A model generated the notes under the pieces. The model made no database searches, had not been told where the DNA came from, and was given only the letters and a program-made list of their open reading frames with translations. Below are positions 1,363-36,902 of a DNA stretch of 64,000 bases, one piece after another (position 1 is the stretch's first letter; each line of letters opens with the position of its first letter). Source of the stretch: a virus (taxonomy: Duplodnaviria; Heunggongvirae; Uroviricota; Caudoviricetes); IMG/VR virus record IMGVR_UViG_3300035208_002606, one strand, 5' to 3'. The translations under genes and the position numbers were made by a program.

Positions 1363-1460
1363 TAAATAATAGTGTAGGGACAGGGGATGCAACCCTTTTT
1401 GAAAAGCCCAATTCTTTTCAAATTACCTACAATAAATTAAACTTAATTGGGAGGTTTAAG
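1363..1460 (+). promoter_or_regulatory. late promoter plus structured leader RNA, copy 1 (SD-sequestering pseudoknot)
   Basis: TAAATA 1363-1368; P1 tgtagg/cctaca; GGACAGG core; hairpin loop cccaatt (1407-1413) complementary to aattggg (1445-1451), which overlaps the SD. Confidence 0.8.
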
Positions 1461-2171
1461 ATGAGAAATAATCAAAAGGTTGTTTGGGGGTTTATTTATC
1501 TTTTTATTGTTTGTAATAAAGGGTATGTGGGACAAACCCCTTATTTAAAAAATAGATTTAAATGTCATTTTAAAATTAAAAAATCAAATTCTTACTTCCA
1601 CAATTCTTTACGCAAATACTTTAAAGAAAATAGTTCTTTCGAAATTTTAGAATGTTGGAAAAGAAATGAAAGAAGTTTAGAAGAATTTAAAAAATTACTT
1701 AATAATAGAGAAATATTTTGGATTGATAAATTAGGCACTTTTGACCCTGAACAAAAAAAGGGTTGGAATTTAACCCGTGGTGGTGGGGGAATTCTTGGAT
1801 TAAAAGGAAAATTTAGTCCAAATTGGAATAAAAAATTGTCTATAGAAACTAGAAGAAAAATAAGTGAAAATCACGCAAATATGTCAGGAATGAATAATCC
1901 TTGTTTTGGAAGAACGAAAGAGAAACATCCCTTTTTTGGAAAAAGGGGGAGTTCAACTTACTATTTTGGAAAGCACCATACAAAAGAAACAAAAAATAAT
2001 ATTTCTAAAAAAACAAGAGGGGAAAATAATGGTTCGGTAAAATTAACAGAAAAAGAAGTAATTGAAATAAAAAATAGTAGTTTATCTCAAATAGAGTTAG
2101 GAAAAATTTATAAAATACATCAATCTCATGTTTCTAGAATAAAAAGAAATGTAAATTGGAAATATTTATAA
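1461..2171 (+). CDS. GIY-YIG homing endonuclease (Seg-like) with NUMOD3-type repeats and C-terminal HTH
   Basis: GFIY...YVGQT, GWNLTRGG, NPCFG/HPFFGK repeats; AT-rich. Confidence 0.85.
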   Translation: MRNNQKVVWGFIYLFIVCNKGYVGQTPYLKNRFKCHFKIKKSNSYFHNSLRKYFKENSSFEILECWKRNERSLEEFKKLLNNREIFWIDKLGTFDPEQKKGWNLTRGGGGILGLKGKFSPNWNKKLSIETRRKISENHANMSGMNNPCFGRTKEKHPFFGKRGSSTYYFGKHHTKETKNNISKKTRGENNGSVKLTEKEVIEIKNSSLSQIELGKIYKIHQSHVSRIKRNVNWKYL

Positions 2172-2193
2172 CCATATATGATATAATATAAGT

Positions 2194-2529
2194 ATGAAAA
2201 AGATAATTAACAAACTTGTGCGAGATAAAATTCCTGAATTAATTTTAAAAAATGGAGAAGAGGGGGATTATTATCAATTTCCACTTGGCCCTGATTATGA
2301 AATAGAACTTATTAATAAATTAGGTGAAGAAATTGGTGAATATCTAGATAGCAAGAACCCTGAGGAACTGGCTGATATCTTGGAAGTTTTGATGGAGTTG
2401 GCGAAAATTAGGGATATCCCCTTTTCAGAAATCGAGGCCATTCGTCAGAAAAAGTTGAACGACCGAGGTGGCTTCAGTAAGAGAATATTCCTGGTGAAGG
2501 TGAGGGAAAATGAGAAACATGACGGATAA
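2194..2529 (+). CDS. MazG-like / PRA-PH-family nucleoside triphosphate pyrophosphohydrolase
   Basis: NKLVRDKIPE...KLGEEIGE...EELADILEV...RGGF signature. Confidence 0.8.
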   Translation: MKKIINKLVRDKIPELILKNGEEGDYYQFPLGPDYEIELINKLGEEIGEYLDSKNPEELADILEVLMELAKIRDIPFSEIEAIRQKKLNDRGGFSKRIFLVKVRENEKHDG

Positions 2530-2965
2530 GGAAACCGCCCAACACTTGAGAGAGTGGGTCAAGACTAATCATGCGACTTTTGCATGGCCTACCGATGCTT
2601 GCGGATACGAACAACATATTAAATTCGTAGAGCATCGAAACAAGAATTGGAACGGTTCGAGCATAGAGGAATTCAATAAGTTTATTTTGGACTATGCGGA
2701 TTCATTAGATGCATGTGATGAATTGGAAAAAATGATGCAGAAAACTCGCAACGCTCAAATTCGACCCAAGAAAAGATGGTGGCACATCAGGAAAAAGGTT
2801 TATTGCACCGAATGTAAGTACGAACGCGGCATGCAGATGGAAATGTTCGGGGTTGTTACGGAGATACCTATATGTGGTAAAGCCGAAAAAGATGGTGGCT
2901 ATAAAAACCGTTATCGTAAAAACAAAAGTAACAACTGCAAAGATTTTGAAGTAAAGGATAATTAA
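2510..2965 (+). CDS. hypothetical protein, Cys-containing C-terminal part
   Basis: ORF in a tightly packed run of genes. Confidence 0.5.
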   Translation: MRNMTDKETAQHLREWVKTNHATFAWPTDACGYEQHIKFVEHRNKNWNGSSIEEFNKFILDYADSLDACDELEKMMQKTRNAQIRPKKRWWHIRKKVYCTECKYERGMQMEMFGVVTEIPICGKAEKDGGYKNRYRKNKSNNCKDFEVKDN

Positions 2966-2966
2966 A

Positions 2967-3185
2967 ATGACCAAACAAGAATTCCTTGATAAGATTGATG
3001 ATGTTCGTGTAATGACAAACCATCTTTTTGTAACCGAAGATGATGGAGAGGAGTGGCAGGATGAAGCGGCCCAAGTAATCAAAACGCTAGGGGAACTTAG
3101 GAGTGATGCAGAACTCCTGCTTGAAGAAGAATACGATGCGGGTTATGAATTGGGGCTGAACAGAAGCGAAAATCTAAAGGAGTAA
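2967..3185 (+). CDS. hypothetical protein
   Basis: packed ORF, acidic. Confidence 0.5.
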   Translation: MTKQEFLDKIDDVRVMTNHLFVTEDDGEEWQDEAAQVIKTLGELRSDAELLLEEEYDAGYELGLNRSENLKE

Positions 3186-3187
3186 TA

Positions 3188-3418
3188 ATGCACCTGTTCA
3201 CCCTTGCCGAGAAAATGAGGTTGTGGATGAAATTACATCCCGACATGCAAAGTTCTTGCGAGTCATGTCCGATAAACAGAAGGGATGAGGGTTTTTCGGC
3301 AGATATCTGTAATGATTTGATAGCGATATTTCAAAAGAGATACAACATGCCCACTACGACAAAAATTTATGATTTATGCCCCGTTCCATTTATGGAGAGA
3401 GAGGATTTTGGAGAATGA
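3188..3418 (+). CDS. hypothetical Cys-rich protein
   Basis: AAGGAG RBS; CxxCP motif. Confidence 0.5.
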   Translation: MHLFTLAEKMRLWMKLHPDMQSSCESCPINRRDEGFSADICNDLIAIFQKRYNMPTTTKIYDLCPVPFMEREDFGE

Positions 3419-3861
3419 ACAGAGAAGAGATATCTTCCCAACTTCGTCTGATTTACGCCAAGACGAAACGCCAAGTAAACTTAGGAGACAGCGAACTTAT
3501 CTTGCACGACCTCTTCGGAATTGAAGATATTAAAATTTCAGTTGCCGAACATTTTGAAGATGCCTACAAGGATTATTTCGTTGTTCAAAAATTTGACGAC
3601 TCCAAGAGAGAGTTATGGAGTTACGAAGACATTTATGATTTTCTCAACACCCTGCTCCATATCAACATGGATGACCTGATTATTTTTTTCACCCACGATG
3701 AAATATTGGAGTATACTATTTCTTTAATAAATGTTTTGAATCGTGCCTTCAATAATTGGGTTCAAAACAAGAGAAGCGGTTTCAGGAAGGGAACGAAAAT
3801 TTATTTGGAGATGGACTCCGATGGAATTCATTTATATCTGAAGCCGGAGATAAAGACATAA
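3415..3861 (+). CDS. hypothetical protein
   Basis: ATGA overlap with the upstream stop; GGAG RBS. Confidence 0.55.
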   Translation: MNREEISSQLRLIYAKTKRQVNLGDSELILHDLFGIEDIKISVAEHFEDAYKDYFVVQKFDDSKRELWSYEDIYDFLNTLLHINMDDLIIFFTHDEILEYTISLINVLNRAFNNWVQNKRSGFRKGTKIYLEMDSDGIHLYLKPEIKT

Positions 3862-4095
3862 ATGAGAGAACAACTAGAATCCCTTATGATTAATTCCTTT
3901 ATGTCGTACAAGCAATTGGAACGCATTTTAGAAGAGAGCGAAAAAATCCCCGCTAGGGATATGCAGACTTTGAAAAATTTGCAACGAGAATTTTTTAAAA
4001 TAATAAATAGTTTTGTTCGGGCAATTCCTGAGACCAAAAACGAAGATAAAAAAGAAAATAAAAATAACGAAGATAAAAACGAATTAATTGTGTAA
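3862..4095 (+). CDS. hypothetical protein
   Basis: abuts the upstream stop. Confidence 0.5.
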   Translation: MREQLESLMINSFMSYKQLERILEESEKIPARDMQTLKNLQREFFKIINSFVRAIPETKNEDKKENKNNEDKNELIV

Positions 4096-4100
4096 CACTT

Positions 4101-4111
4101 TGTGGTATAAT
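4101..4111 (+). promoter_or_regulatory. extended -10 promoter (TGTGGTATAAT) likely driving the Y-RNA array and Ro60 gene
   Basis: TGTG(G/A)TATAAT recurs at 16094, 24218, 27170, 43069, 46755 and 49105, each before a gene start. Confidence 0.7.
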
Positions 4112-4151
4112 ATTCTTGTTGAAAGGATTTGAGAGTTATTTGACATTTTTG

Positions 4152-4255
4152 TTGAACGTGGCGACAGGGAAGAGTTACTTCTATCGAAATGGGAATGCAC
4201 CCAAATATGGGCGCTTGGGCTTCGGCCTTCTCTCTTTCCGCATGTTCCCGTTCAA
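4152..4255 (+). ncRNA. Y RNA-like module 1
   Basis: ttgaacg/cgttcaa closing stem; tggcgaca...tgttcc bulged helix; gagttacttc motif. Confidence 0.7.
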
Positions 4256-4264
4256 AGCAATATT

Positions 4265-4456
4265 AAAGATGTGGCGACAGAATGAGTTACTTCATTACAA
4301 CTATTATTTCTTACCCACGGGTAAGAAGCGGCGGGTAAACCCGCTGAAAGCCGCAAGGCGAAATGCCGTGAAATTCGGTGAGAGTCATAGGAACTACGCT
4401 TATGACTCGCCCACAATAAAGTGGGCGAGAAACTCGTTCGCTCATTCCCATCTTTT
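4265..4456 (+). ncRNA. Y RNA-like module 2 (large multi-hairpin cargo)
   Basis: aaagatg/catcttt stem; tggcgacagaatgagttacttc ... actcgttcgctcattcc; at least five internal hairpins. Confidence 0.7.
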
Positions 4457-4465
4457 AGCATTATT

Positions 4466-4577
4466 CGGATGTGGCGACAGAATGAGTTACTTCGGTTAAT
4501 AACTACACAGTAGTTTAGCGGGTTCAAACCCCGCAAAGGCCTTCGGGCTTTAAGACTTATTCGCTCATTCCCATCCG
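4466..4577 (+). ncRNA. Y RNA-like module 3 (T-arm-like hairpin)
   Basis: cggatg/catccg stem; gcgggttcaaaccccgc T-arm mimic; cttcgg hairpin. Confidence 0.7.
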
Positions 4578-4587
4578 TAGCATTATT

Positions 4588-4648
4588 AAGGCGTGGTGTA
4601 GACAGAGATACTTCATTGGAAAAAGCCTCTGTCGATTGTTCCCGCTTT
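4588..4648 (+). ncRNA. Y RNA-like module 4 (minimal)
   Basis: aaggcg/cgcttt stem, gacagag/ctctgtc stem, atacttc motif, almost no cargo. Confidence 0.65.
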
Positions 4649-4659
4649 TAGCATTATTA

Positions 4660-4744
4660 GAGTGTGGCGATAGATATGGGTTACTTCAAAACTAACCATC
4701 TTGGTTCTGCCGAAAGGCAATAGCCCTGTCGCATGTTCCCACTC
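4660..4744 (+). ncRNA. Y RNA-like module 5
   Basis: gagtg/cactc stem; tggcgata...gcatgttcc; ggttacttc; tgcc-gaaa-ggca hairpin. Confidence 0.65.
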
Positions 4745-4756
4745 GTAGCATTATTA

Positions 4757-11471: not shown

Positions 11472-11893
11472 AATACAATTCTTTAGAACTTCATTGGCTT
11501 CAAAAAAAATCCAAAGATTTATTCTATCCAAACTTATTGTTTGTGTCGGAATTAAAAAGTGCGGGTGGGTATTTTCTCCATCCTAGAAAATCAGAAGTTT
11601 GGATTGGTAATCGGGTTTATGATTTAACCAAGGGGATGATTATTGTCACCGAAATATGGGACGATAAAGAAATTCCCAATACGATTGCCCACGAATGGAG
11701 ACACTTTTTACAATATCATAAATTTGGACCGATTAAAGGCACACAATTTAACAATAAAATACCTTATCCAAGTGCAATCAAATCCTTTTTTCAAAATCCT
11801 TTTGAGAGGGACGCATTGTTGTATTCTCATAAAGTAGCACCAAGTTCAACATCAGATTATTGGATGGAAATAATAAATGAAAATGATAAATAG
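11468..11893 (+). CDS. putative zincin-like metallopeptidase
   Basis: IAHEWRH (HExxH) with a downstream PFERDA. Confidence 0.6.
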   Translation: MKYNSLELHWLQKKSKDLFYPNLLFVSELKSAGGYFLHPRKSEVWIGNRVYDLTKGMIIVTEIWDDKEIPNTIAHEWRHFLQYHKFGPIKGTQFNNKIPYPSAIKSFFQNPFERDALLYSHKVAPSSTSDYWMEIINENDK

Positions 11894-11981
11894 TAGTGAG
11901 GGACAGGGTTCGCTACCTTTTCAAAACACTCCTGATGTTTTGAATGACCTCACTAATATTTTGGTTTTCAGGAGGAACTAA
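11887..11981 (+). promoter_or_regulatory. late promoter plus structured leader RNA, copy 2
   Basis: TAAATA; P1 tagtgagg/cctcacta; loop ctcctga (11929-11935) complementary to tcaggag (11968-11974). Confidence 0.85.
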
Positions 11982-12686
11982 ATGGAAAAAAATGGATTGA
12001 TTTATGTCGGGATAAATTTAGAAAATGGAAAAAAATATGTAGGGTGTACTCGACATACTTTAGAAACAAGATTAAAATATCATTTTTATGATTTAAAAAG
12101 AGGCAAAAGATATGCGTTTAATCAAGCGCTTGATAAATATGGATTATCTAAATTTATTTTTATAACTATTCCTATTTCTTTTGAAAAAATGCATCATTAT
12201 GAAGCATTGGCAATTAGATTTTTAAAAACCAAATCACATCAAAACGGTTATAATATTTGTGATGGTGGCAGGGGAATAAAGGACTATACGGGAGAGATTA
12301 GAAAAAAAATAAGTAAAAATCATGCCGATGTAAGTGGCGAAAAAAATCCCATGTTTGGTAAAAAACGGACACAAAAAGAAAAAGATAATTTATCAAAAAT
12401 GAGAACAGGAAAAATAGGTTATATTAGAACAGAGGAGACAAATCAAAAACTCTCAATATCAATGAAAAAATATTGGGCAAGTGGTTTACACACCGATAGA
12501 AAAAGAGAGAATCACCCAAGAGCAAGAGCAGTAATATTAAAATCCCCAAATGGAACAGAGTATAATCTCCCTTGTTATCATCCTTTTTGTAAAGAATACA
12601 ATTTAAACCCCACCCGTATTCGCTCTGTTTTACAAGGAAAACAACAAAGTCATCACGGTTGGTCGGGGAGATATATAGAAAAATGA
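11982..12686 (+). CDS. GIY-YIG homing endonuclease
   Basis: GLIYVGINLENGKKYVG, NGYNICDGG, NPMFGK. Confidence 0.85.
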   Translation: MEKNGLIYVGINLENGKKYVGCTRHTLETRLKYHFYDLKRGKRYAFNQALDKYGLSKFIFITIPISFEKMHHYEALAIRFLKTKSHQNGYNICDGGRGIKDYTGEIRKKISKNHADVSGEKNPMFGKKRTQKEKDNLSKMRTGKIGYIRTEETNQKLSISMKKYWASGLHTDRKRENHPRARAVILKSPNGTEYNLPCYHPFCKEYNLNPTRIRSVLQGKQQSHHGWSGRYIEK

Positions 12687-16680: not shown

Positions 16681-18446
16681 ATGAATTAGTATTTAAAGAT
16701 GTAGAAATGAGAAATTTTTTAAGCGTGGGGAATAAACCTTTAGCAATAACTTTTGATAGAGGTCTTAATTTTTGCTGCGGTTGGAATCATCACACCGCCT
16801 CCTCAAACGGTGTGGGTAAGACGGTAATATTCTACTCGTCCATTCTCTACGGACTTTTTGGAGAAACGGGTCGGGATATTAAGCAAGCCAACCTCATTAA
16901 CTACCGCAACAGGCAGAAGATGTACGTGCGCTTGACGATAGAGAAGAACGGGGAGGAAATCGTCATCTACAGAGGCCGCAAACCCAATGTTTTCTACTAC
17001 ATCCATAACGGTACGACTTATCAGAACGACAATGTCTACGAAACTCAGACCCAACTTAACAAACTTCTCGATATTTCCGAGGATATCTTCACAAATGTCT
17101 TTATTATCAACGCTTCGGATATACTAGATTTTATCAAGGAAGAAGGAAGTGTTAAACTCCGAGACCGCTTCGAAAAACTATTCTTCAAGGATGTGATATT
17201 CAAAAAAGTCCTTGAAACCGTCCGCAAGGAATACAACATCGTTCAGAAACAGCAGGAACTCAACCAATCCAAGATTCAGGAAAAGATAACATTCCTCAAG
17301 AGGCTCAAGGCCATTATCACTTCTTCCAAAAAGACCGACAACTACGAAAAACAGTTAGAAAAGTATAACCAACGAAGCAAGGAACTCCAAGAAAAACTGA
17401 TGCTTGTCGAAAATAAAATTTCCCAACGCCAAGACATCGAAAAATCCAAAAAATTAAAGGAAAAACGGAAGGAGTACTTGGAGAAGCATCACGAAATCAC
17501 TTCCAAAATCTATTACTACGAAGAAAAGATAAAAGAGACAGACGAAAAGATGAAAACCGTCTTCTCCGCAGAGTCCACTTGCCCCCTTTGCCGTCAAAAT
17601 ATCAACGAACACACAAGAGAGAAGTTAGACAAGGAATATCATCAGGAATATTCCGAACTGCAAAGGTTAAAAAAAGAATTCGAGGCCAATTCCACCCTCT
17701 GTCGAAGAAAATTGGACAAAATCAACGAGTTGGACGGACAAATTCAGGACACAATCTACAAGTACGACCAAGAAAAGACCAACACCAAGACCGCACTCAA
17801 CGAAATCGCCCAACAAATCAAGTTTTTTCAGGAAAATTACAAGACCCACTTGGGAATGGTGCAGGAGTTCAATGCCGTTCGTTCAGATTTACTTAAAATC
17901 CGCAACGAGAACGGCTCTCTCGATACCGAAAGAGAAGACTTAACCCTTTTGGCGCAACTCTTCGACAACTCTTCAGGCGGGATTCTCAATTTCTTCATCG
18001 AGAAGGTGCTGAAAGTTCTGAACTTAATCATTCTCAAGTACATCAGGCAGATGAATATGGACTTCACCTTCCACTTTGACTCCAACCTGAGGTTGAAATT
18101 CGATGTTCTCGACACCCTCTCCCTCAATAACTTTAGCGGTGGGGAGAAAAAAATAATCAACTTCATCGTGCTGTTCAGCCTGTTGGAATTTTTCTACCAA
18201 ACTTTGAATTTCAAGCCGTCCATCCTGATAATTGACGAGATTGCAGACACCGCAATATCTAGTTCCAAGGTTGACCTCATCTTTGGGATTCTTGCCAAGT
18301 TCAACAAGGATAGCAATGTCGGCGTGTACTGCCTTTCACACGATTACGGAGTTCAGCACAATTCCGTCATTCAGTTTGACAGGGTAATAGAATTAGAAAA
18401 GAAAAACGGTTTTACAGGAATAAAAGAAATCAAGAACAATAAATAA
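16677..18446 (+). CDS. recombination ATPase, Rad50/SbcC-like (T4 gp46-like)
   Basis: NFLSVGN, Walker A NGVGKT, coiled coil with CPLC zinc hook, FSGGEK signature, IIDE, SH. Confidence 0.92.
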   Translation: MNELVFKDVEMRNFLSVGNKPLAITFDRGLNFCCGWNHHTASSNGVGKTVIFYSSILYGLFGETGRDIKQANLINYRNRQKMYVRLTIEKNGEEIVIYRGRKPNVFYYIHNGTTYQNDNVYETQTQLNKLLDISEDIFTNVFIINASDILDFIKEEGSVKLRDRFEKLFFKDVIFKKVLETVRKEYNIVQKQQELNQSKIQEKITFLKRLKAIITSSKKTDNYEKQLEKYNQRSKELQEKLMLVENKISQRQDIEKSKKLKEKRKEYLEKHHEITSKIYYYEEKIKETDEKMKTVFSAESTCPLCRQNINEHTREKLDKEYHQEYSELQRLKKEFEANSTLCRRKLDKINELDGQIQDTIYKYDQEKTNTKTALNEIAQQIKFFQENYKTHLGMVQEFNAVRSDLLKIRNENGSLDTEREDLTLLAQLFDNSSGGILNFFIEKVLKVLNLIILKYIRQMNMDFTFHFDSNLRLKFDVLDTLSLNNFSGGEKKIINFIVLFSLLEFFYQTLNFKPSILIIDEIADTAISSSKVDLIFGILAKFNKDSNVGVYCLSHDYGVQHNSVIQFDRVIELEKKNGFTGIKEIKNNK

Positions 18447-18450
18447 CAGT

Positions 18451-19248
18451 ATGGAAGGAATCGTCTATATCGGCACTAATTTGAAGAATGGGAAACAATA
18501 TATTGGGAAAACAACTAGAGAATTAAAGGAAAGAACGAAAGAGCATGAAAAAGAAAATGGGTGTCGTTGTATTCATTCAGCAATCAAAAAATATGGTATA
18601 GAAAACTTCAAATGGATTCCTATAAAATATTTTATTGATGAGTTAAATGAAATGGAAATGTTTTGGATTAAAACTTTAAATACGGAAACACCGAAGGGAT
18701 ATAATTTAACAAATGGTGGAGATGGCGGGGATACTTTTACTAACAATTTAAAAAAAGAAAAAATAAGAGAAAAATCAAAAAAAGCATCACAAAAATATTG
18801 GGGGGAACATCCTGAAAAGAAAAAAGAACAATCGACAAAATGGAAAGGAAAAAATAATCCTATGTTTGGAAAAAAAGGAGAATTATCTCCATATTGGGGT
18901 AAAAAAAGACCCCAATATGGGTTAAAAGGAGAAAAAAATCCTTTTTTTGGAAAACATCATTCTGAAGCAAGTAAAAAAGCAATGAGTAAAAAAAGGATAG
19001 GGAAAACAGTTCCACACACAGAAGAATGGAACGAAAATATTTCAAAAGCACTTATGGGAAAACACCCCACAGAAGAAACGAAAAATAAAATAAGAAATAC
19101 AATTATTAACAATAAAATATCTGCTGGAAAAAACAACCCCATGTATGGTCGGAGCCTTTATTCAGTCTGGGTTGAAAAATATGGAAAAGAAATCGCAGAT
19201 GAAAAATACAAAAACTGGATAAATAATAAGAGACGGAAAATAATATGA
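18451..19248 (+). CDS. GIY-YIG homing endonuclease with NUMOD3 repeats (apparently leaderless)
   Basis: GIVYIGTNLKNGKQYIG, GYNLTNGG, NPMFGK/NPFFGKHHSE; TAAATA 5 nt before the ATG. Confidence 0.85.
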   Translation: MEGIVYIGTNLKNGKQYIGKTTRELKERTKEHEKENGCRCIHSAIKKYGIENFKWIPIKYFIDELNEMEMFWIKTLNTETPKGYNLTNGGDGGDTFTNNLKKEKIREKSKKASQKYWGEHPEKKKEQSTKWKGKNNPMFGKKGELSPYWGKKRPQYGLKGEKNPFFGKHHSEASKKAMSKKRIGKTVPHTEEWNENISKALMGKHPTEETKNKIRNTIINNKISAGKNNPMYGRSLYSVWVEKYGKEIADEKYKNWINNKRRKII

Positions 19249-21978: not shown

Positions 21979-23478
21979 ATGATTCTTGTCGAGAAAACCG
22001 CTAACCCTAATTACTTAAAAGTCTCAGCCGAGAAATCTATTTTCGGTTTCCTAAGCCTTCACTTCACGGTCAAAGACAAAAATTGTTTCTTTCACCCCCT
22101 GTACAAGAAAAAACTTTGGGACGGCAAGATAAGATTCCTAAGGTCTGACGGAACCATTCTGTCGGGCCTACTCGTTGAGATTCTCAGGATTGCCAAAATC
22201 AATCATTGGCAAGTACAGTTCGACAAAGACCTCATCCTGAACCCGCACAAGTTCCAACGCCCTGAAATCGAACTCAGCCTGAAGGATGTCACCCTATTTC
22301 CTGACCAAGTGGACACGATAGAAAAACTCCTGAAGTATAATTACGGACTCTGTAAACTTCCCACGAGCGCAGGAAAGAGTTATATCGAGATAGCCATCAT
22401 GAACCTCTACAGGCTCCGAGGCCTGAAGAATATGATTTTAATCGTTCCACGGCAGACGCTCGTGGAACAGATTTACGAGGATGTCGTTCTGAAATCCCCC
22501 TTTCTCAAGCCTGAAGAAGTGGGCCGTCTCTACGGCGGCATGAAGGAATGGGACAAGCCCGTTGTCGTTGCGACTTGGCAGAGCCTCAACACGCTCTTGC
22601 AGTTGGACTCCGATTACGGCAAGCGGTTTGAACTGCTCATCCTTGATGAGTGTCATATATCTTCTTCAGTAGCAAAAGTTACTAAAGAAGTCATCACCGC
22701 CTTCCCCACCAAGCACAAATATGGATTCTCTGCAACAATTTTAAGTAGAGACGCTGATAAACTTGAGTATCTTAATTCAGTTTCACTCTTTGGCCCAATA
22801 ACCGCAAGTGGGAGTATCCAAAAACTTCAAGAAATAGATAGAATTTCTGATGCCGAGATACAAATCAAATTGCTGAAGTATTCCATTCAGCCAGAAATAA
22901 AAACATACAACGAATATCAAGATTTTGTGCGTTATTCTCCGAAACGAAGAGAATATATCGTGGAATTAATTAAAGAAGTAAAAAATAGATTACCGAACTC
23001 TAATGGCCTTCTTCTTATTCGTAATGTTGATTTTGCTAGAGAAATGACTGAAATGTTACAGAAAGATTTTGGTGAAAATGTTCATTTAATTGAAGGGTCT
23101 GTTAAAGTCGAGGATAGAATTGAAATAAAAAACACTATAAAAAGAAATGAGAATCAGATATTGGTGGCTTCGGTAGGAACATTTTCTATAGGAGAAAATT
23201 TACCCAATCTCCATTGGCTGATTTTGGTTCAATCCCGCAAATCCGAAATAGAAACCATTCAACAGGTCGGCAGATTATTGAGAAAATATCCAGGGAAAGA
23301 AAAGGCACTCATATATGATATAACGGATGACTTGACGGTAATTCGGACAAACGAAAATGGCAAAGAAATAAAGAAAAATTTCGGGAAAAAACACTTGAAA
23401 AAACGCATAGAAGTCTTCCAACGACACGGATTAAAAGTAGTAGGGATAGAACAAGTTTATCTTCAAAATAATAAATAG
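21979..23478 (+). CDS. uvsW: SF2 DNA helicase
   Basis: WDGKIR, PTSAGKS, TWQSL, LDECH, GFSAT, QQVGRLLR, YDITDDL. Confidence 0.9.
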   Translation: MILVEKTANPNYLKVSAEKSIFGFLSLHFTVKDKNCFFHPLYKKKLWDGKIRFLRSDGTILSGLLVEILRIAKINHWQVQFDKDLILNPHKFQRPEIELSLKDVTLFPDQVDTIEKLLKYNYGLCKLPTSAGKSYIEIAIMNLYRLRGLKNMILIVPRQTLVEQIYEDVVLKSPFLKPEEVGRLYGGMKEWDKPVVVATWQSLNTLLQLDSDYGKRFELLILDECHISSSVAKVTKEVITAFPTKHKYGFSATILSRDADKLEYLNSVSLFGPITASGSIQKLQEIDRISDAEIQIKLLKYSIQPEIKTYNEYQDFVRYSPKRREYIVELIKEVKNRLPNSNGLLLIRNVDFAREMTEMLQKDFGENVHLIEGSVKVEDRIEIKNTIKRNENQILVASVGTFSIGENLPNLHWLILVQSRKSEIETIQQVGRLLRKYPGKEKALIYDITDDLTVIRTNENGKEIKKNFGKKHLKKRIEVFQRHGLKVVGIEQVYLQNNK

Positions 23479-23564
23479 TAGTGAGGGACAGGGTTCGCTA
23501 CCTTTTCAAAATGTCCTACCATTTTGAATAACCTCACTAATATTTTAGTCAGTAGGAGGGCCAA
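23472..23564 (+). promoter_or_regulatory. late promoter plus structured leader RNA, copy 3
   Basis: near-identical to copy 2, but loop tcctac (23514-23519) pairs with gtagga (23552-23557). Confidence 0.85.
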
Positions 23565-24227
23565 ATGGATTTAGAAAACGGAATTATTTATATTGCCACC
23601 AATTTAGTTAATGGAAAACAATATGTGGGCCAAACAGTTAGAAGTATAAAAGATAGAATATACGAACATAAAACAAGAAATAAAAAAACTTGTCCTGTTT
23701 TTCATTCCGCTATTGTCAAGTATAATATTTCATCTTTCAAATGGGTGTATTTTGAATATCCTATTGAAAATTTAGATTGGGCTGAAAATTTTTGGATAAA
23801 AACCCTGGACACAATATCACCTAATGGTTATAATTTAGATTCAGGGGGAAACACAACGAAACGACATCATAATTTATCCAAATTAAAAATGAAAATGAAA
23901 AAACTTGGGCAAAACAATCCTAATTTTGGACGAATAGGGGAAAAACATCCGATGTTTGGTTTAAGAGGTGAAAAAAGTCCTTTGTATGGAAAACCTAGAC
24001 CAGAATCGTTTAAATTAAAAATGAAAAAAATAATGGAAGGGGATAATCATCCTAATTTTGGAAACCATTTGTCACAGACTACAAGAGAAAAAATATCCAA
24101 GGCCTTAAAAAATAAATCAAAAAGTGAAAAACATAAATTGTCATTATCCAAATCACATAAAGGACAAACTCCTTGGAATAAAGGAAAGTTGGGATGGAAA
24201 AAGAAAAAGAGACAGGCTGTGATATAA
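23565..24227 (+). CDS. GIY-YIG homing endonuclease
   Basis: GIIYIATNLVNGKQYVGQT, PNGYNLDSGG, NPNFG/HPMFG repeats, PWNKG. Confidence 0.85.
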   Translation: MDLENGIIYIATNLVNGKQYVGQTVRSIKDRIYEHKTRNKKTCPVFHSAIVKYNISSFKWVYFEYPIENLDWAENFWIKTLDTISPNGYNLDSGGNTTKRHHNLSKLKMKMKKLGQNNPNFGRIGEKHPMFGLRGEKSPLYGKPRPESFKLKMKKIMEGDNHPNFGNHLSQTTREKISKALKNKSKSEKHKLSLSKSHKGQTPWNKGKLGWKKKKRQAVI

Positions 24228-27189: not shown

Positions 27190-28113
27190 ATGAAACAAAA
27201 GAAACTCATACTCTTGGATTTTAATAACATGGTTTACATCGTGGTGTTTTCCAGATACCTTGTAGACAAGTACAAAGGAATCACCACAAAGGCAATGACG
27301 AAAGAGAAGATGGACGAACTGATGCGGGATTCGTTAAAGATGATGTTCTGTAAAATCTTTAACATTCTCGAATGGAATCAGGATTACCAGATTGACCTCC
27401 TATTTGCCAAGGACGGCTACAGGCTTTGGCGCAGGAACAGGCTCTTTCAGGAGTACAAGGCCCACCGCAAGAGCAAAAGAGATGCCTCTTCCGTTGACTT
27501 TGAACTCGTCTTCAATATCTTTGATGAAATTTGGGAGCAGTTGAAGGCCGTCTTGCCGTATCGTTTCATAAATTTGGACGGCATTGAAGTGGACGATATT
27601 ATTTACGAAACGATAATGTCGGAATACGACAGTTACGATGCCTTTCAGATTTATTCAGCCGATGCCGACTTCGTTCAAATCCTGAGGAATAAAAAGGTCG
27701 AACTGTACAACCCTAAAATGAAGGAGTTCCGTAAGCCTGAGGATTCGGAGTTCGACCTGTTCGAGAAAATTATAAGGGGGGACAAATCAGATGGTATTCC
27801 GAATATTTACACAGACTCCATCACGGAGCGTCAAAAGCCAATCTTTACCACTTCTATCAAGGCTTGGTATCAAGACAAAAATGCTTTTAAGGAATTTCTC
27901 AAAGCCCAACCCAAGGAAGTGCAAAAGCGATTCATCCGCAACAAGCGGTTGATTGACATGCGGGATATTCCTGACGATATTCGGAACGATATTCGTACTG
28001 CCCTTGTAGTTCCGTCTAAAAATTTCAACCTTCAGGAATACATGAAAACGGCAAAAAAATATTACATCGAAATGATGGAAGAAAAGGCTGAGATGATTTT
28101 CAGAACGGAATAA
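27190..28113 (+). CDS. rnh: RNase H / 5'-3' flap exonuclease
   Basis: LLDFNN, WR....EYKAHR, EVDDII, SADADFVQ, GDKSDGIPN, RNKRLID. Confidence 0.9.
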   Translation: MKQKKLILLDFNNMVYIVVFSRYLVDKYKGITTKAMTKEKMDELMRDSLKMMFCKIFNILEWNQDYQIDLLFAKDGYRLWRRNRLFQEYKAHRKSKRDASSVDFELVFNIFDEIWEQLKAVLPYRFINLDGIEVDDIIYETIMSEYDSYDAFQIYSADADFVQILRNKKVELYNPKMKEFRKPEDSEFDLFEKIIRGDKSDGIPNIYTDSITERQKPIFTTSIKAWYQDKNAFKEFLKAQPKEVQKRFIRNKRLIDMRDIPDDIRNDIRTALVVPSKNFNLQEYMKTAKKYYIEMMEEKAEMIFRTE

Positions 28114-30602: not shown

Positions 30603-30703
30603 TAAATAATAGTGTAGGGACAAGGAGTAATTACCCATTCGGAATACCTCGTATATTCTGGATTACCTACACTATTTTAATAATTTTACGAGGAGGTTGT
30701 TAA
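30603..30703 (+). promoter_or_regulatory. late promoter plus structured leader RNA, copy 4
   Basis: P1 aatagtgtagg/cctacactatt; loop cctcgta (30647-30653) pairs with tacgagg (30687-30693). Confidence 0.8.
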
Positions 30704-31303
30704 ATGGAAAATAATATTGAACTTAAAGAGAAAAAACGATTAAAATATTGTTGGGTTTGTGGAAAAGAATTTGAGGCACATACGCCGTGGCACAGATATT
30801 GCTCGCACAAATGTGAAGCAGAAAATCAAAGAAATATTAAAGGAAGAGTTGTTGATAAAGGAAGATATTGTAGACAATGTGGGAAAAAATTTATTCCTTC
30901 ACGAAATGGGGGACAAAATAAACAACATTGCTCTCCCGAATGTGCAGTTAAAAGTGCTAGAGAATCTAGGTCTAAATTTTATAAACTAAATCCACAAAAA
31001 CGAAAAGAGTATGGTTTAAATAGAGAAAAAAAAGTAGGAAAAGACAATAATTTATTAAGATTTTATTTGCGATATCCTGAAGCCCCTAAAAAATGTCAAG
31101 GTTGTGGCAATGATAGGGTTCTTGATATTGCACACAGACCCGAATTTAGGAGAAATGGGGCTTGGAGGTCTAAATCAAATACAACAATCAAAAAAGTATG
31201 GATTTTATGCCCAACTTGTCACGCTTTGTTAGATAGAAAAGGCTGGACTCCAGAAGAGATTGGGATAAAGGAGGAGGAGTCAAATGCCGCTAAAGAAATT
31301 TAA
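30704..31303 (+). CDS. HNH endonuclease with two zinc-finger repeats
   Basis: CWVCGKEF...YCSHKC, CRQCGKKF...HCSPEC, CQGCG...DIAH...LCPTCHALLD. Confidence 0.75.
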   Translation: MENNIELKEKKRLKYCWVCGKEFEAHTPWHRYCSHKCEAENQRNIKGRVVDKGRYCRQCGKKFIPSRNGGQNKQHCSPECAVKSARESRSKFYKLNPQKRKEYGLNREKKVGKDNNLLRFYLRYPEAPKKCQGCGNDRVLDIAHRPEFRRNGAWRSKSNTTIKKVWILCPTCHALLDRKGWTPEEIGIKEEESNAAKEI

Positions 31304-32759
31304 TCATATTGATTTGTTCGCGGGAATTGGGGGATTTTCTTATGCCGCCCGACAGATTTGGGGTGAGGAATATGAACCCGCATTCTTCTGCGAAATCGAC
31401 AAGTACTGCCAAGCCGTACTCAGAAAAAATTTTGGAAAGGAGATAAAGATTTATGGGGACATTAGAAAAGTCACCAAAGAGAGATACCTTAGAGATATTG
31501 CCAACGCCAAGGGCATCCAAAACGACAAACGAGAACGAGGAAAATTGGAAGAAGAGGCAAGCGGCAGGAAAGGTCTCGACTCCCCCTCTCGCTCTCGCCA
31601 TTCAAATGTCCCGCCGCAAGAAAACCAAGACTTTAAAATTGACCTCCTTACCGCTGGCCCACCCTGCCAACCCGCATCTCAAGCAGGAAAGCGAGAAGGA
31701 GAGGAAGATGACCGTTGGCTCTGGGACGAAATGTTTAAAGTTATACAAGACTTTAAACCGACATGGTGCATCGTTGAAAATGTTTACGGACTTCTTAGTC
31801 TCAAAAGGGGAGTGGTATTCGACTCGTTGTTCTCTAAGATGGAAAGCCTTGGTTACGAAGTCCAACCATTTGTTATTGGTGCAGTCGGCAAAAACGCTCC
31901 CCACAAAAGATACCGAGTCTGGTTTATTGCTCACGCCAAGGGCAACGGAAGTGTTGGAAAGTCAGGAGGGGTTCGTCAACAGGAACAACGACAGGTCGAT
32001 GAATTGCTATCCCAACTTGACAACGCAAATCAGCGGGATGCTGACTACTCCGAATGTTCAGGACTCAAGGAATGTTCCTGCGGCGCTGAGGCCGAGCAGA
32101 ATCGAGACGGGGAGAAAGACGGATTATCTCAGCCGCCAAATTGCAATGGTTCCGACCCCGACAGGCACGGATTACAAGAGCAGAGGGCCGAACAGCAAAC
32201 AGATGGGCGTGGACAATTTGATGAAAATGCTCCCGACCCCAAGCACGAAGGATATGTCGGGCGGGGCAGTACAGGCAGAGGCAACGGAGACGGGATTCAA
32301 GAGGGTGAGCAAACAGGGCAAATCTCACGGGGCGCAACTTCACGATGTGGTGAAGACCGTCTCGATGTTGGGAACTCCGAAGGAACAGGACAGTCGTGCG
32401 GCTTTGACGGACAGGGGCCGAAGCAATATGGGGGAGCAAGTGAATCAGGCTTTGAAAGATGGGACAGAGGGTGGTATGAAGTTGCAACCAAACTTTGTAG
32501 AGTGGCTAATGGGCTTCCCGCAAAATTGGACGGACTTGAACTCACCGCCTCCAAACACAGAGAAGAAAGATTGAGAGCGTTAGGAAATGCCGTAGTGCCG
32601 CCGTTGGTTGCCGAGTTTCTCAAGGCCATTAAAAAGGTCGAAGAGATGAATTTGACGGACGAGCCAAAAGTGAAAAAAACGATTGAACACATAAATATAG
32701 ATGAGAGTGGAGAAAAGTATTTCGTGACAAAGACACTAAAGAATTTTGGAGTGAAGTAA
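31284..32759 (+). CDS. DNA (cytosine-5) methyltransferase, alpha chain (motifs I-VIII and X)
   Basis: DLFAGIGG, CEID, GDI, GPPCQ, VENV, PHKRYRVW, LGNAVVP; motif IX absent in this frame. Confidence 0.85.
   Translation: MPLKKFNHIDLFAGIGGFSYAARQIWGEEYEPAFFCEIDKYCQAVLRKNFGKEIKIYGDIRKVTKERYLRDIANAKGIQNDKRERGKLEEEASGRKGLDSPSRSRHSNVPPQENQDFKIDLLTAGPPCQPASQAGKREGEEDDRWLWDEMFKVIQDFKPTWCIVENVYGLLSLKRGVVFDSLFSKMESLGYEVQPFVIGAVGKNAPHKRYRVWFIAHAKGNGSVGKSGGVRQQEQRQVDELLSQLDNANQRDADYSECSGLKECSCGAEAEQNRDGEKDGLSQPPNCNGSDPDRHGLQEQRAEQQTDGRGQFDENAPDPKHEGYVGRGSTGRGNGDGIQEGEQTGQISRGATSRCGEDRLDVGNSEGTGQSCGFDGQGPKQYGGASESGFERWDRGWYEVATKLCRVANGLPAKLDGLELTASKHREERLRALGNAVVPPLVAEFLKAIKKVEEMNLTDEPKVKKTIEHINIDESGEKYFVTKTLKNFGVK
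31453..32574 (+). CDS. nested +1-frame methyltransferase beta chain (repeat modules plus motif IX)
   Basis: 373 stop-free codons; six [LMV]xTP modules; C-terminal KLQPNFVEWLMGFPQNWT resembles C5-MTase motif IX. Confidence 0.7.
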   Translation: MGTLEKSPKRDTLEILPTPRASKTTNENEENWKKRQAAGKVSTPPLALAIQMSRRKKTKTLKLTSLPLAHPANPHLKQESEKERKMTVGSGTKCLKLYKTLNRHGASLKMFTDFLVSKGEWYSTRCSLRWKALVTKSNHLLLVQSAKTLPTKDTESGLLLTPRATEVLESQEGFVNRNNDRSMNCYPNLTTQISGMLTTPNVQDSRNVPAALRPSRIETGRKTDYLSRQIAMVPTPTGTDYKSRGPNSKQMGVDNLMKMLPTPSTKDMSGGAVQAEATETGFKRVSKQGKSHGAQLHDVVKTVSMLGTPKEQDSRAALTDRGRSNMGEQVNQALKDGTEGGMKLQPNFVEWLMGFPQNWTDLNSPPPNTEKKD

Positions 32760-33468: not shown

Positions 33469-33583
33469 TTGGTAAAATATTATGTTTCTTCGGTTTTCAT
33501 AAGTGGTATTTGTGGCAACCTTATCCGAATCTTTATCCCGAAATAAAAATAAAAAGATGCTCTCGCTGTGACGATTTTTATGA

Positions 33584-33904
33584 GTGGAGATAAAAATGTT
33601 TAGCCTTAAACAAAAACAGTTCATTGCCGCAGAAATTGAGAAATTACTTTTGAGCCTCAATCATCCTGAAATGCCAACATCAAAACCAAATTTTACCCTG
33701 CATGTCGATGGGAAAGAGGAATGGTCGTGGGCAGACATCAAGCCCAATTGGATATACGAAGGGGAATCTCAACAGCCATCAATAAACCCATTCAATGAAA
33801 TGATTGCCAATCAAACCCCCGTGCCCCCCGATATTCAAAAAATAGTAAACGAGAACTTCATGAGCCTGATAACCAAAGATAGTGATTTAAAGGAGAAAAA
33901 ATAA
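33584..33904 (+). CDS. hypothetical protein
   Basis: ORF in a small-gene cluster; true start may be a few codons downstream. Confidence 0.5.
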   Translation: MEIKMFSLKQKQFIAAEIEKLLLSLNHPEMPTSKPNFTLHVDGKEEWSWADIKPNWIYEGESQQPSINPFNEMIANQTPVPPDIQKIVNENFMSLITKDSDLKEKK

Positions 33905-33905
33905 A

Positions 33906-34145
33906 ATGAAAGTTTTTTGTCAAAGTTGCAAACATTTTTGGTCAAGTACTTTTTGTGCCGCCCCATCTAATGTAAAAGATACTTGGTTTGGCCCAAATAG
34001 TGCTATGATATTAACCCCCGAAGAAAAAAACAAAAACAATGATTGTCCCGATTATATTGATAAGAAATTAGCGGAGAGGAAAGAACAACTACAAAAAGAG
34101 ATTGAGATATGGAATAATAAAAAATGGTGGCAATTTTGGAAGTAA
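33906..34145 (+). CDS. hypothetical Cys-rich protein
   Basis: C..C...C...KNKNNDC motif, similar to the C-terminus of 2510..2965. Confidence 0.5.
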   Translation: MKVFCQSCKHFWSSTFCAAPSNVKDTWFGPNSAMILTPEEKNKNNDCPDYIDKKLAERKEQLQKEIEIWNNKKWWQFWK

Positions 34146-34502
34146 GGAGAAGAAATAAAATGAAAAAAAATGAAAAACAATTTGGAGAAAAATTGTATTC
34201 AAATTGGAAAAAGTGGCAAGAAGAAAATGCCGAAATAAGTAGAAAGGAACGCGCTGATATTGAAAAACTTGAGGGAAAAGAAAAACTATCGGCAGAAACT
34301 CAACAATTTTTAACCGAATTAAAGAGATTTCAAAAATTCATGAAAAAACAAGAAAAAATTGTCAATACTTTTTATGGTGAACCGAAAAAGGAGAAGAAAT
34401 AAAATGAAAAAGCGTTATTGGGTACTGTTGGGATTGGTTGCGATTGGCGGCTACTTGTATTGGAAAATCAATCAAGACCTGTTTGATTTTTAAGGAGCAA
34501 TT

Positions 34503-34811
34503 ATGGATAACATTATAGAACAATTCGATAAATATTTGAAGTCAAATGCATCAGAAGTCAAATTTATTTATTGCGGCATAATGACTTCTCCGGTGGAATT
34601 AGAATGGCTTGCCCATCAGTATAAAACAGATGTCACTCTCCCTGATGAAAACATCACTCCCGATATTTTTCCCGTAATATTAGAAACGATGAATGATAAG
34701 TTTTCAGGAGAAGAAATAAAAATTTATCAAATATTCACTAAAAAAGCAGTAAGGGAAACCATGAATAATGTTGTGAATATACTTCATTTTCGTTTTGGAG
34801 TAAAGGAATAA
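34503..34811 (+). CDS. hypothetical protein
   Basis: AAGGAG RBS. Confidence 0.5.
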   Translation: MDNIIEQFDKYLKSNASEVKFIYCGIMTSPVELEWLAHQYKTDVTLPDENITPDIFPVILETMNDKFSGEEIKIYQIFTKKAVRETMNNVVNILHFRFGVKE

Positions 34812-34827
34812 ATTTAGGAGTGATGAA

Positions 34828-35070
34828 ATGAAAGACATATTTTGGTGGGAACCAAAAATTTCGAAGCATAAAGCAATATGTTTACAGTTAAGTTGGGTGC
34901 AACCTAGACATATTGATTTTGGTTGTGAATTTGACTCTTCGTGGAAAGATGACCATGCAGGATTTGCCATCACGATAAGTCTGTTTAAGATTATGTTCCA
35001 CTTTAACTTTTATGACATTCGCCATTGGGATGATGAAAAAGACCAATGGGTAATATATGAGGAGAACTAA
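34828..35070 (+). CDS. hypothetical protein
   Basis: AGGAG RBS. Confidence 0.45.
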   Translation: MKDIFWWEPKISKHKAICLQLSWVQPRHIDFGCEFDSSWKDDHAGFAITISLFKIMFHFNFYDIRHWDDEKDQWVIYEEN

Positions 35071-35071
35071 A

Positions 35072-35830
35072 ATGAACGAAAAACTGAAAGTATTTTTTAA
35101 GAAATTCATGACCTTCTTGGCGAACAATTGGATTGCTATTCTTATCATTTTCGCCCTGTTGGGATTGAGCGGGATTACCAAAAGTTGTGCCGACAACAAA
35201 CTCAGGAATGCCAACGCAAGGATTGCCGAGTTGGAAAAAGCAAACAAAGATTTAGAGGCTCAACTTGCACAGAGTGCCGAGTCGCAAGACCTTCTTGACA
35301 TTCAATTGAAGGAACTTTTGGCTGTTGTGGAATCATTGAAGAAGGATAAGGAATCCCTAGAAAAAGACAAGGCTAAGATTGCCAAGAAGTACAAGGACTT
35401 GCAGGACAAGTTCGGACAACTTTCACAGGAACAGCAAGACCAACTTCTTATCGAGTTGATGGAGAAGTACAACATTCAGGCAGAGATTCGGGACAATATG
35501 CTCATCATCACGATGGAGGACAGAGGCAGACTCTACACCTTCATGATTGATATTGACAAGGTGAAAGAGGATTTGGAAAATACCAACGAACTGCTTCTGA
35601 ATTGCAGAGCGACAGTAACGGCAAAGGACGAAATCATCTCTAATAGGAACGCAACCATCGTACTGAAAGATAAGGATATTACGACACTAAAAACCGTGTT
35701 GAATAACAAGGACGAGATTATCAGGAAGTTGAACAACAAGGTTCTGTGGACGAAGGTTAAGTTCTTTGGAAGCAGGGCCATCCCTGCATTATTGGTGGGT
35801 TTAGTTGTCGGGTTCTTGGTGGGGAAGTAA
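35072..35830 (+). CDS. membrane-anchored coiled-coil protein (spanin-like?)
   Basis: N-terminal hydrophobic segment, long heptad coiled coil, C-terminal hydrophobic segment. Confidence 0.45.
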   Translation: MNEKLKVFFKKFMTFLANNWIAILIIFALLGLSGITKSCADNKLRNANARIAELEKANKDLEAQLAQSAESQDLLDIQLKELLAVVESLKKDKESLEKDKAKIAKKYKDLQDKFGQLSQEQQDQLLIELMEKYNIQAEIRDNMLIITMEDRGRLYTFMIDIDKVKEDLENTNELLLNCRATVTAKDEIISNRNATIVLKDKDITTLKTVLNNKDEIIRKLNNKVLWTKVKFFGSRAIPALLVGLVVGFLVGK

Positions 35831-36108
35831 AATGAAATATAAACAATTGGAAACTTTAGATTATACTAGTGAAGATAATTGTATGGGTGAAATAATTTTT
35901 AACGGGCAAACGAGTGGTTCATTTCGTAAAGCAAATTCAAAAGAAGGTTGGGTTGATACTTGGATTATTTATGGTTTAACAAAACAACATTTTCCAGATT
36001 TTCTTAAAGATGAAAATGGTAAATGTATAGTTGTTAGGTTATATGGCAAAGTAGAAATATTTGCCCTGGATAAACAAGGCAAAAGAATAGAAGAAAAGGA
36101 GGAATAAT

Positions 36109-36453
36109 ATGTGTATAAGTAAAGAAATGGCAGGGAATTATCCAAAAGAAATGACAGGGAATTATCCATCTCACCCTTATGTGGGTGCAGAGGTAAAAAG
36201 ACCCACTAATCAAAGGGATGAGAATGAAAAGATTTTGGCAGTATTAATGGAAATACAGAGTTTCTCTGCTAAGATTTTAGAAATGGCTGAGGATATGAAA
36301 GATTATTATTTAGGGGCGAGGCCCGAAAAGTCAGGGGAAGACGAGGTAATCAATCCTGCGCCGCGGAATGGCTTTTTCGACAAAATATTGAGTATTTCAA
36401 ATGAGACTCAACGTAATTTGTCAGAGATTTGGGAAATATTGCATAAGATGTAA
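36109..36453 (+). CDS. hypothetical protein with an 8-aa tandem duplication
   Basis: AGGAGG RBS; KEMAGNYP/KEMTGNYP. Confidence 0.5.
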   Translation: MCISKEMAGNYPKEMTGNYPSHPYVGAEVKRPTNQRDENEKILAVLMEIQSFSAKILEMAEDMKDYYLGARPEKSGEDEVINPAPRNGFFDKILSISNETQRNLSEIWEILHKM

Positions 36454-36477
36454 GGAGGATAACAAGGAAAAATAAAG

Positions 36478-36696
36478 ATGGAAATTAAAATCACCAATGC
36501 GAAAAAAATTAAAATAAAAGAAGGCGACCTTTTGGTCTTTGAAGTGGATGCTAAGTTGTCGCCTAAAAGGTTTATTGAATGGGCAGAAAAATTCACAAAG
36601 GGGATGGAAGAGTTATATCCAAATATCAAGGTTTTGGTTTTACCAAAAGAAGTACAACTAAAAACTATTCTTAATGCGGAAAAGTTGAAAAAATAA
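36478..36696 (+). CDS. hypothetical protein
   Basis: ORF with RBS. Confidence 0.5.
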   Translation: MEIKITNAKKIKIKEGDLLVFEVDAKLSPKRFIEWAEKFTKGMEELYPNIKVLVLPKEVQLKTILNAEKLKK

Positions 36697-36713
36697 TAAC
36701 ACAAGGAGACATA

Positions 36714-36788
36714 ATGGACGATATGGAATTGCTATCGATTGCGGAAAAACACTTTAACGGCGATGTCAACATTGCGAAAATTTGGTAA
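36714..36788 (+). pseudogene. orphaned 5' end of ribonucleotide reductase (MDDMELLSIAEKHFNGDVNIAKIW*)
   Basis: own AAGGAG RBS; GDVNIAKIW identical to the N-terminal region of 37880. Confidence 0.8.
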
Positions 36789-36807
36789 CAAAATAAAACC
36801 AAAATGA

Positions 36808-36902
36808 TAAATACAGGTGAAGGACAGGGAGTCGCGACCTTTCTAAATGTCCTAGCATTTAGATTACTTCACTTGATTATTTTAACTCTAGGAGGTTAGA
36901 AG
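36808..36902 (+). promoter_or_regulatory. late promoter plus structured leader RNA, copy 5
   Basis: P1 caggtgaag/cttcacttg; loop tcctag (36850-36855) pairs with ctagga (36888-36893). Confidence 0.8.

Follow-up and report, generated by a model that had tools for sequence, protein, structure and literature searches.

How can one leader RNA stand before homing endonucleases of unrelated families, and what might it do for the cassettes that carry it? The question is raised by a 64,000-nt stretch of phage DNA (IMG/VR record IMGVR_UViG_3300035208_002606, Caudoviricetes; hereafter the window), in which an initial annotation had recognized five copies of a structured leader, each followed by a putative nuclease gene, and had proposed that the loop of its hairpin P3 pairs with bases overlapping the Shine-Dalgarno (SD) sequence. 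That the leader is a real structured RNA family is now strongly supported, and we propose that it probably serves as a portable lock that represses translation in cis, a more elaborate form of the ribosome-binding-site (RBS) hairpins of I-TevI and mobE.

The five stretches were found where they had been reported (Table 1), and all share, over roughly 100 bases, the layout first described: TAAATA, the P1 5′ arm, a GACA junction, P2, P3, U-N-A, the P1 3′ arm, an AU-rich linker, GGAGG and ATG. The pattern TAAATA-N3-5-GTG-N1-2-RGGACARGG matches the window five times, exactly at the starts of the copies, with 0 matches expected from 100 dinucleotide-preserving shuffles of the window, and a covariance model (R1, run with filters off) recovered only these five, at 64-104 bits, the runner-up scoring 20 bits. 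The leader is also widespread beyond the window. The pattern was found in 49 IMG/VR loci, and R1 gave 59 matches in such loci, 50 of them distinct (alignment A4); a metagenome scan gave at least 16 R1 matches in the 100 loci searched, many of them duplicating IMG/VR contigs. A looser three-way-junction pattern without TAAATA returned mostly chance matches from IMG/VR, together with three more divergent members (one in locus L064, two in L100) that retain the whole design, including the complement between loop and SD.

When the sequence of each copy was checked, all five of the claimed complements between P3 loop and SD flank proved exact, and the relationship holds well beyond the window: a perfect 6-7-nt complement of the P3 loop lies at the cognate SD flank in 45 of 47 distinct leaders, which carry 37 different loops, against an average of 3.7 nt for non-cognate pairings. 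One of the remaining two reaches 7 pairs when a single G.U is accepted, and the other reflects an alignment slip at window copy 5, whose true loop pairing is TCCTAG/CTAGGA. On alignment A7 this loop-loop helix is 97.8% paired, with changes on both sides in 6 of its 7 pairs and up to four pair types at some of them, and sliding the partner cuts pairing to 39-54%. The distance from the P3 loop to its partner is nearly constant (36-42 nt), and the predicted duplex energy averages -7.7 kcal/mol. The P3 loop always opens with a C, which pairs with an SD guanine, and pyrimidines predominate in its 5′ part (CUCC, CCUC, UCCU, CUU), so that the loop can be read as an anti-SD to which 3-4 "address" bases have been added.

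The partner of the P3 loop is itself a loop. The AU-rich "linker" and the bases 3′ of the SD form a fourth hairpin, P4, which the initial annotation had missed. Plain folding predicts P4 in four of the five window copies; its mean length is 7.2 bp in the 47 leaders, and on A7 it is 89% paired, with compensatory changes in 6 of 7 pairs. In 2000 permutations of the arms, the cognate combinations came out ahead every time. The bases that match the P3 loop make up the P4 loop, what remains of the SD opens the P4 3′ arm, and the start codon lies 0-3 nt past the stem in the 47 leaders. P3 and P4 are both conserved, and their loops complement one another and covary, as expected of an intramolecular kissing-loop complex. 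The "three-way-junction pseudoknot" originally envisaged thus stands as a multihelix junction with a pseudoknot-type contact that buries the SD, and gives way in one respect: the contact is a kiss between the P3 and P4 loops, not the pairing of a loop with a single strand. A7 contains 52 G.U cells, 41 of them in P4, which become A.C mismatches on the opposite strand; such frequent G.U pairs indicate that the sense RNA alone can adopt the fold, and speak against both a DNA cruciform and an antisense RNA. Judged by covariation, no base of the SD is left unpaired in the folded sense RNA: the kiss takes up its 5′ half and P4 its 3′ half, and the AUG sits at the foot of P4.

The nested helices carry similar marks. 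On A4, 88.4% of their cells are paired, compared with 78.5% in shuffles (none of 500 as high), and pairing is only 40-55% when the partner is slid. P3 comprises 9 bp, which are 98.7% paired on A4 with compensatory changes in 8 of 9 pairs, and 99.6% paired on A7. P1, once its register is corrected, comprises 8-12 bp, of which pairs 1-8 counted from the junction are 87-100% paired; GC, AU and UA pairs exchange in it, the outer pairs of window copy 5 carry two double changes, and in many copies the helix extends into the final bases of TAAATA. The earlier observation that P1 and P3 vary with pairing retained is thereby extended to the relatives, among which both helices show compensatory changes. 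P2 has two invariant G-C pairs and a third that can be G-C, U-A or C-G. A fourth P2 pair, previously overlooked, is G.U in 26, A.C in 19, A-U in one and G-C in one of the 47 leaders. Both G.U and A.C are seen with an identical P2 loop, so this switch arose more than once, and a preference for G.U and A.C over Watson-Crick intermediates is a classical hallmark of wobble pairs that matter for function. The P2 loop showed no covarying downstream partner, its cognate and non-cognate complements being equal at 4.09 nt. The junction strands G-A-C-A (J1/2) and U-N-A (J3/1) vary little or not at all (invariant or near-invariant positions in the 47 leaders: G17, A18, C19, A20, U63 and A65), and the conserved unpaired junction bases number only about 7. 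Covariation thus supports a three-way junction of P1, P2 and P3. In copy 5, the P1 3′ arm (CTTCAC; 36867-36875) can also pair with GTGAAG in nuclease codons 3-5 (36909-36917), and plain folding favours this pairing over P1, which may be chance or an alternative state.

Table 1. Leader copies, their structural parts and the nuclease genes behind them in the window (scores are those of covariance model R1; aa, amino acids)
Feature	Position	Strand	Details
Leader copy 1	1363..1463	+	103.6 bits
Copy 1 parts			TAAATA 1363-1368; P1 1370-1378 with 1426-1434; GACA 1379-1382; P2 1383-1396; P3 1398-1422
Copy 1 3′ parts		+	P4 1437-1459; SD GGGAGG 1449-1454; ATG 1461
Copy 1 P3 loop CCCAATT	1407..1413	+	exact complement of 1445-1451
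Copy 1 P4 loop AATTGGG	1445..1451	+	kissing partner, overlaps SD
Leader copy 2	11887..11984	+	84.3 bits
Copy 2 parts			P1 11894-11901 with 11948-11955; P2 11906-11918; P3 11920-11944; P4 11960-11982; ATG 11982
Copy 2 P3 loop CTCCTGA	11929..11935	+	complement of 11968-11974
Copy 2 kissing partner TCAGGAG	11968..11974	+	P4 loop and SD
Leader copy 3	23472..23567	+	82.7 bits
Copy 3 parts			P1 23479-23486 with 23532-23539; P2 23491-23503; P3 23505-23528; P4 23544-23565 (one mismatch); ATG 23565
Copy 3 P3 loop TCCTAC	23514..23519	+	complement of 23552-23557
Copy 3 kissing partner GTAGGA	23552..23557	+	
Leader copy 4	30603..30706	+	89.1 bits
Copy 4 parts			P1 30610-30618 with 30666-30674; P2 30623-30636; P3 30638-30662; P4 30676-30704 (11 bp); ATG 30704
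Copy 4 P3 loop CCTCGTA	30647..30653	+	complement of 30687-30693
Copy 4 kissing partner TACGAGG	30687..30693	+	
Leader copy 5	36808..36905	+	64.4 bits
Copy 5 parts			P1 36814-36822 with 36867-36875; P2 36827-36840; P3 36842-36863; P4 36880-36901; ATG 36903
Copy 5 P3 loop TCCTAG	36850..36855	+	complement of 36888-36893
Copy 5 P4 loop CTAGGA	36888..36893	+	kissing partner
GIY-YIG + NUMOD3 homing endonuclease, 236 aa	1461..2171	+	behind copy 1
GIY-YIG + NUMOD3 homing endonuclease, 234 aa	11982..12686	+	behind copy 2
GIY-YIG + NUMOD3 homing endonuclease, 220 aa	23565..24227	+	behind copy 3
HNH-like endonuclease, 199 aa	30704..31303	+	phrog_1271, E 3.8e-12; no significant Pfam match
DUF7487-related putative homing endonuclease, 324 aa	36903..37877	+	behind copy 5

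Every full-length open reading frame (ORF) downstream of a leader encodes a nuclease, and three or more families are represented. The 39 downstream ORFs include 19 of the GIY-YIG type with NUMOD3 and 6 of the DUF7487 type, some with a Vsr-like DUF559 domain; a 13-member downstream set matches the endonuclease VII/HNH families of PHROGs, and clustering of the downstream proteins by BLAST gives four families. Within the window, the three genes assigned to GIY-YIG (with NUMOD3) and the one assigned to HNH (phrog_1271) keep their assignments, and that of the fifth to PD-(D/E)XK is not proven, such domains (TnsA-N, endonuclease I) being seen only in lead-level Atlas neighbours of the protein. This protein, encoded from 36903, shares its N-terminus with DUF7487 homing endonucleases, clusters with DUF7487 set F3 and is 46% identical over 71 amino acids to a DUF7487 protein of locus L014; no match was found among PDB sequences. 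The proposal that the RNA is common to unrelated nuclease families gains weight from identical 29-nt 5′ modules, which precede GIY-YIG, endonuclease VII/HNH-like and DUF7487 genes; one of them, ATAGTGTAGGGACAAGGAGTAATTACCCA, stands before GIY-YIG, endonuclease VII-like and HNH-like genes.

The cassettes directly follow conserved replication and recombination genes, and different nucleases, each with its own leader, occupy the same site past a UvsW-like helicase. In 10 of 47 cassettes the upstream ORF ends within an AAT-RAT-AAA-TAR box (window 11878-11893 and 23463-23478; loci L001, L009, L013, L042, L046, L037:9564 and L015:6261), leaving N-x-K C-termini on unrelated proteins; the stop of the upstream gene thus falls within the promoter box, and the cassette's 5′ edge rewrites the C-terminus of its neighbour. 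Two leader remnants are cut within or after P3 (L008:8596-8692 and L033:8854-8954), the first joined to the middle of an endonuclease VII-like ORF, and several intact leaders stand before ORFs shortened to 15-38 codons (L037:525-596, L037:6008-6121, L008:6158-6202). These truncated ORFs and remnants fit decaying selfish cassettes. No inteins or "fractured genes" flank the cassettes examined. Directly 3′ of the copy-4 cassette lies a DNA methyltransferase ORF (31284-32759; phrog_363/116), in which a 373-codon ORF (31453-32574) is nested in another frame, and window ORF 5084-6400 matches phrog_850, annotated "RNA-binding protein" (E 1e-50).

The window is phage-like, with genes nearly all on the + strand, among them a DnaB/gp41-like helicase, SbcCD, RNR and a DNA polymerase; a megablast search (12 kb) found no close relative of it among GenBank phages. 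Four related phage records carry 5-11 leader copies each, one of them being a complete 223-kb genome with terminal repeats and 8 copies. In G001 and G002, two of the related records, there are genes for a gp55-type late sigma factor (phrog_234, E about 1e-17) and a gp23-type major capsid protein (E about 1e-82), and among the genes 5′ of cassettes are a UvsW-like helicase, RecA, DNA ligase and clamp loader, which together indicate that the carriers are distant T4-like phages. The DNA is present in landfill and groundwater metagenome runs; the listed public runs include no RNA run. In the 169-kb relative G001 (G001:C1:124646-125007; L276), short extra gp23-family matches with in-frame stops lie beside a leader-copy region, possibly a capsid-gene fragment left by cassette insertion.

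TAAATA lies directly against the P1 5′ arm or runs into it. The window contains 51 occurrences of ATAAATA where 19 would be expected, mostly on the + strand, and the motif lies 15-35 nt 5′ of many start codons; TAAATA is also found upstream of the head-gene operon in G001 and G002. This enrichment and placement, together with the gp55 homologue, make TAAATA plausible as a gp55-type late promoter overlapping P1. Separately, TGTGGTATAAT near 27190 in the window is an extended -10 of host type. Three further GIY-YIG genes of the window (18439-19248, 50540-51318 and 58057-58826; phrog_314, E 1e-20 to 1e-32) have neither leader nor SD, and their ATG lies 5-7 nt past ATAAATA, so that late transcription from that putative promoter would yield an mRNA without a leader, apparently another means of achieving "late only" translation.

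RBS hairpins with an embedded late promoter are known for I-TevI, I-TevII, I-TevIII, segB and Aeh1 mobE (PMC2988022). Like them, the present leader forms the 5′ untranslated region directly before a phage homing-endonuclease ORF, its 5′ arm is overlapped by a T4-type late-promoter box (TATAAATA there, the putative box ATAAATA here), in a group of phages with a gp55-type sigma factor, and its SD is base-paired, the presumed purpose in both cases being the silencing of read-through transcripts. In the T-even hairpins, however, the SD pairs with an arm that is missing from late transcripts, whereas here its partners are the P3 loop and the P4 stem, both 3′ of the predicted late start; the former are single hairpins, and the leader has four helices, a three-way junction and a loop-loop contact with the SD, in keeping with the earlier suggestion that it is the more elaborate of the two. 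Its sequence, unlike theirs, is conserved across unrelated nuclease families and many phages.

A second group of possible relatives is formed by the 5′-untranslated-region hairpins of free-standing GIY-YIG and Vsr-like genes at the "fractured gene" loci of the GOS metagenome (Dassa et al. 2009; PMC2677866). As described there, these too belong to metagenomic phage-like loci with GIY-YIG or Vsr-like nucleases and contain TATAAATA inside the structure, and two conserved motifs pair mutually, which could correspond to the P1 arms. The hairpins of that paper are RNAfold predictions only, without loop-SD covariation, a kissing contact, P4 or a junction, and no inteins flank the cassettes examined here. 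Compared by description only, the two sets may be the same or sister families.

Otherwise the leader resembles known RNAs only in part. In agreement with the initial annotation, which had recognized no named family, no Rfam model reached its gathering score over the 64-kb window and nothing relevant appeared at E≤10 on the five copies: no model of Rfam 15, including int-alpA (RF02996), ribozymes and riboswitches, matches any copy at that threshold. Literature searches found no description of this leader motif. Fully paired 7-nt loop-loop kissing complexes are formed by ColE1 RNA I/RNA II and by TAR-TAR*, and, as in these, the entire 6-7-nt loops of two hairpins here form a Watson-Crick helix; the earlier complexes act in trans or are artificial, whereas the contact in the leader is intramolecular, scaffolded by the three-way junction and placed so as to occlude the SD. 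SD-sequestering pseudoknots occur in the SAM-II and preQ1-II riboswitches and in ribosomal-protein operators, which likewise hide the SD by tertiary pairing but bind a defined ligand or protein, while the leader precedes selfish nucleases. With about 7 conserved unpaired bases and nuclease genes of three or more families behind it, the leader does not have the profile of a riboswitch.

We propose that the module would be the self-contained promoter and leader of free-standing homing-endonuclease cassettes in T4-like phages. Its P3 loop would serve as an extended anti-SD of the leader's own and pair along the full P4 loop, so that in the folded state the whole ribosome-binding site would be double-stranded and binding of the 30S subunit blocked, and the nuclease would be translated very little regardless of the transcript around the cassette. 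Because the module carries all that it needs, it should work wherever the cassette inserts. Covariation shows the structure and the occlusion of the SD; repression is what we infer from them.

How the nuclease would ever be made is a harder question. T4 late transcription starts about 6 nt past the promoter box. A corresponding start within P1 would leave 4-5 of its 8-12 bp, and in an RNA begun at the sixth base after TAAATA the predicted inner-P1 pair probability falls from 0.87 to 0.41. The shortened P1 would loosen the junction that holds P3 to P4 and thereby allow some late translation, as for I-TevI and mobE; that a late start inside P1 opens the lock in this way, as a start-site switch, is a tentative suggestion that we put at somewhat under an even chance. 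Several points weigh against the scheme. P3, P4 and the kiss all lie 3′ of the predicted late start, hence are kept in the truncated RNA, and nested-structure folding of that RNA leaves the SD still buried, so that the scheme does not account for nuclease production. By an uncomputed geometric estimate, where the linker is only 0-2 nt there may be strain in accommodating a complete P1 and P4 together with a coaxial 7-bp kiss. Finally, the 5′ module, from TAAATA to P2, is near-invariant beyond the needs of pairing, which suggests that it does something more, for instance as a promoter, a protein-binding site or homology for recombination. A bolder version would make the leader a start-site-sensing or factor-controlled "address-coded" lock, in which the junction with its G.U/A+.C wobble is read by a phage factor, or is undone by initiation within P1, and all 5-11 nucleases come on together, late; this version we consider unlikely.

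Among the alternatives, the one that survives best is a regulated switch opened by a factor in trans, in which the junction (GACA, U-N-A and the G.U/A.C pair of P2) would bind a phage or host protein or a small ligand that breaks or stabilises the lock, joining the nucleases into one regulon. The invariant or nearly invariant junction positions of the 47 leaders (G17 to A20, U63 and A65) suggest such a site, but about 7 conserved unpaired bases are few for a ligand pocket; wobble geometry favoured over Watson-Crick pairing at one P2 pair also speaks for recognition. The recurrence of one 5′ module before unrelated genes, 5-11 times per genome, would suit a common factor, yet promoter function or gene conversion also accounts for its conservation, the genes are selfish nucleases rather than metabolic ones, and no candidate factor was identified. 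We regard such a switch as distinctly unlikely.

Still more doubtful is a module that works mainly at the level of DNA, with promoter and leader as portable recombination homology that shuffles nuclease ORFs and the RNA fold secondary, for which the promoter-stem-loop (PeSL) cassettes of T4-type phages offer a comparison. The identical 29-nt 5′ modules before different nuclease families, the different leader-bearing nucleases at one site past the UvsW-like helicase and the leader remnants fused to truncated ORFs (L008:8596, L033:8854) are all what shuffling would leave behind. It nevertheless leaves unexplained the compensatory changes in four helices and in the loop-loop helix, as well as the G.U pairs that suit only the sense strand, and it is compatible with the lock as an additional role rather than a replacement; as the main function of the module it is very improbable. 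An antisense or opposite-strand RNA, a self-cleaving ribozyme (self-cleavage having been raised in the initial annotation) or a transcription attenuator is hardly credible, since G.U pairs, especially the 41 P4 cells, become mismatches on the other strand, no Rfam model, ribozyme or other, matches any copy at E≤10, and no U-tract lies 3′ of P3 or P4 in the five copies. A coding leader can be dismissed as well, since an open frame runs through only some of the copies and copy 3 is not in register with its ATG.

Taken as a portable lock on translation, the leader bears on how selfish genes persist in large phage genomes. Homing endonucleases must stay nearly silent so that the carrier phage is unharmed, and to our knowledge only simple, gene-specific RBS hairpins were previously known as a means of controlling them. 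The portable module would silence any nuclease ORF placed behind it, its 3-4 "address" bases being free to evolve provided that complementarity is kept, and would thereby explain the low-cost spread of unrelated nuclease genes through these genomes. More than 45 distinct sequences and covariation in its pseudoknot make it a well-supported candidate for a new Rfam family; its G.U/A.C wobble preference and invariant GACA junction are concrete structural targets, and programmable cis-repressors of translation could be modelled on this natural example. If the "address-coded" version were true, these phages would harbour a selfish-gene regulon under a single portable RNA, which would be a kissing-loop switch of translation found in nature and open to re-programming.

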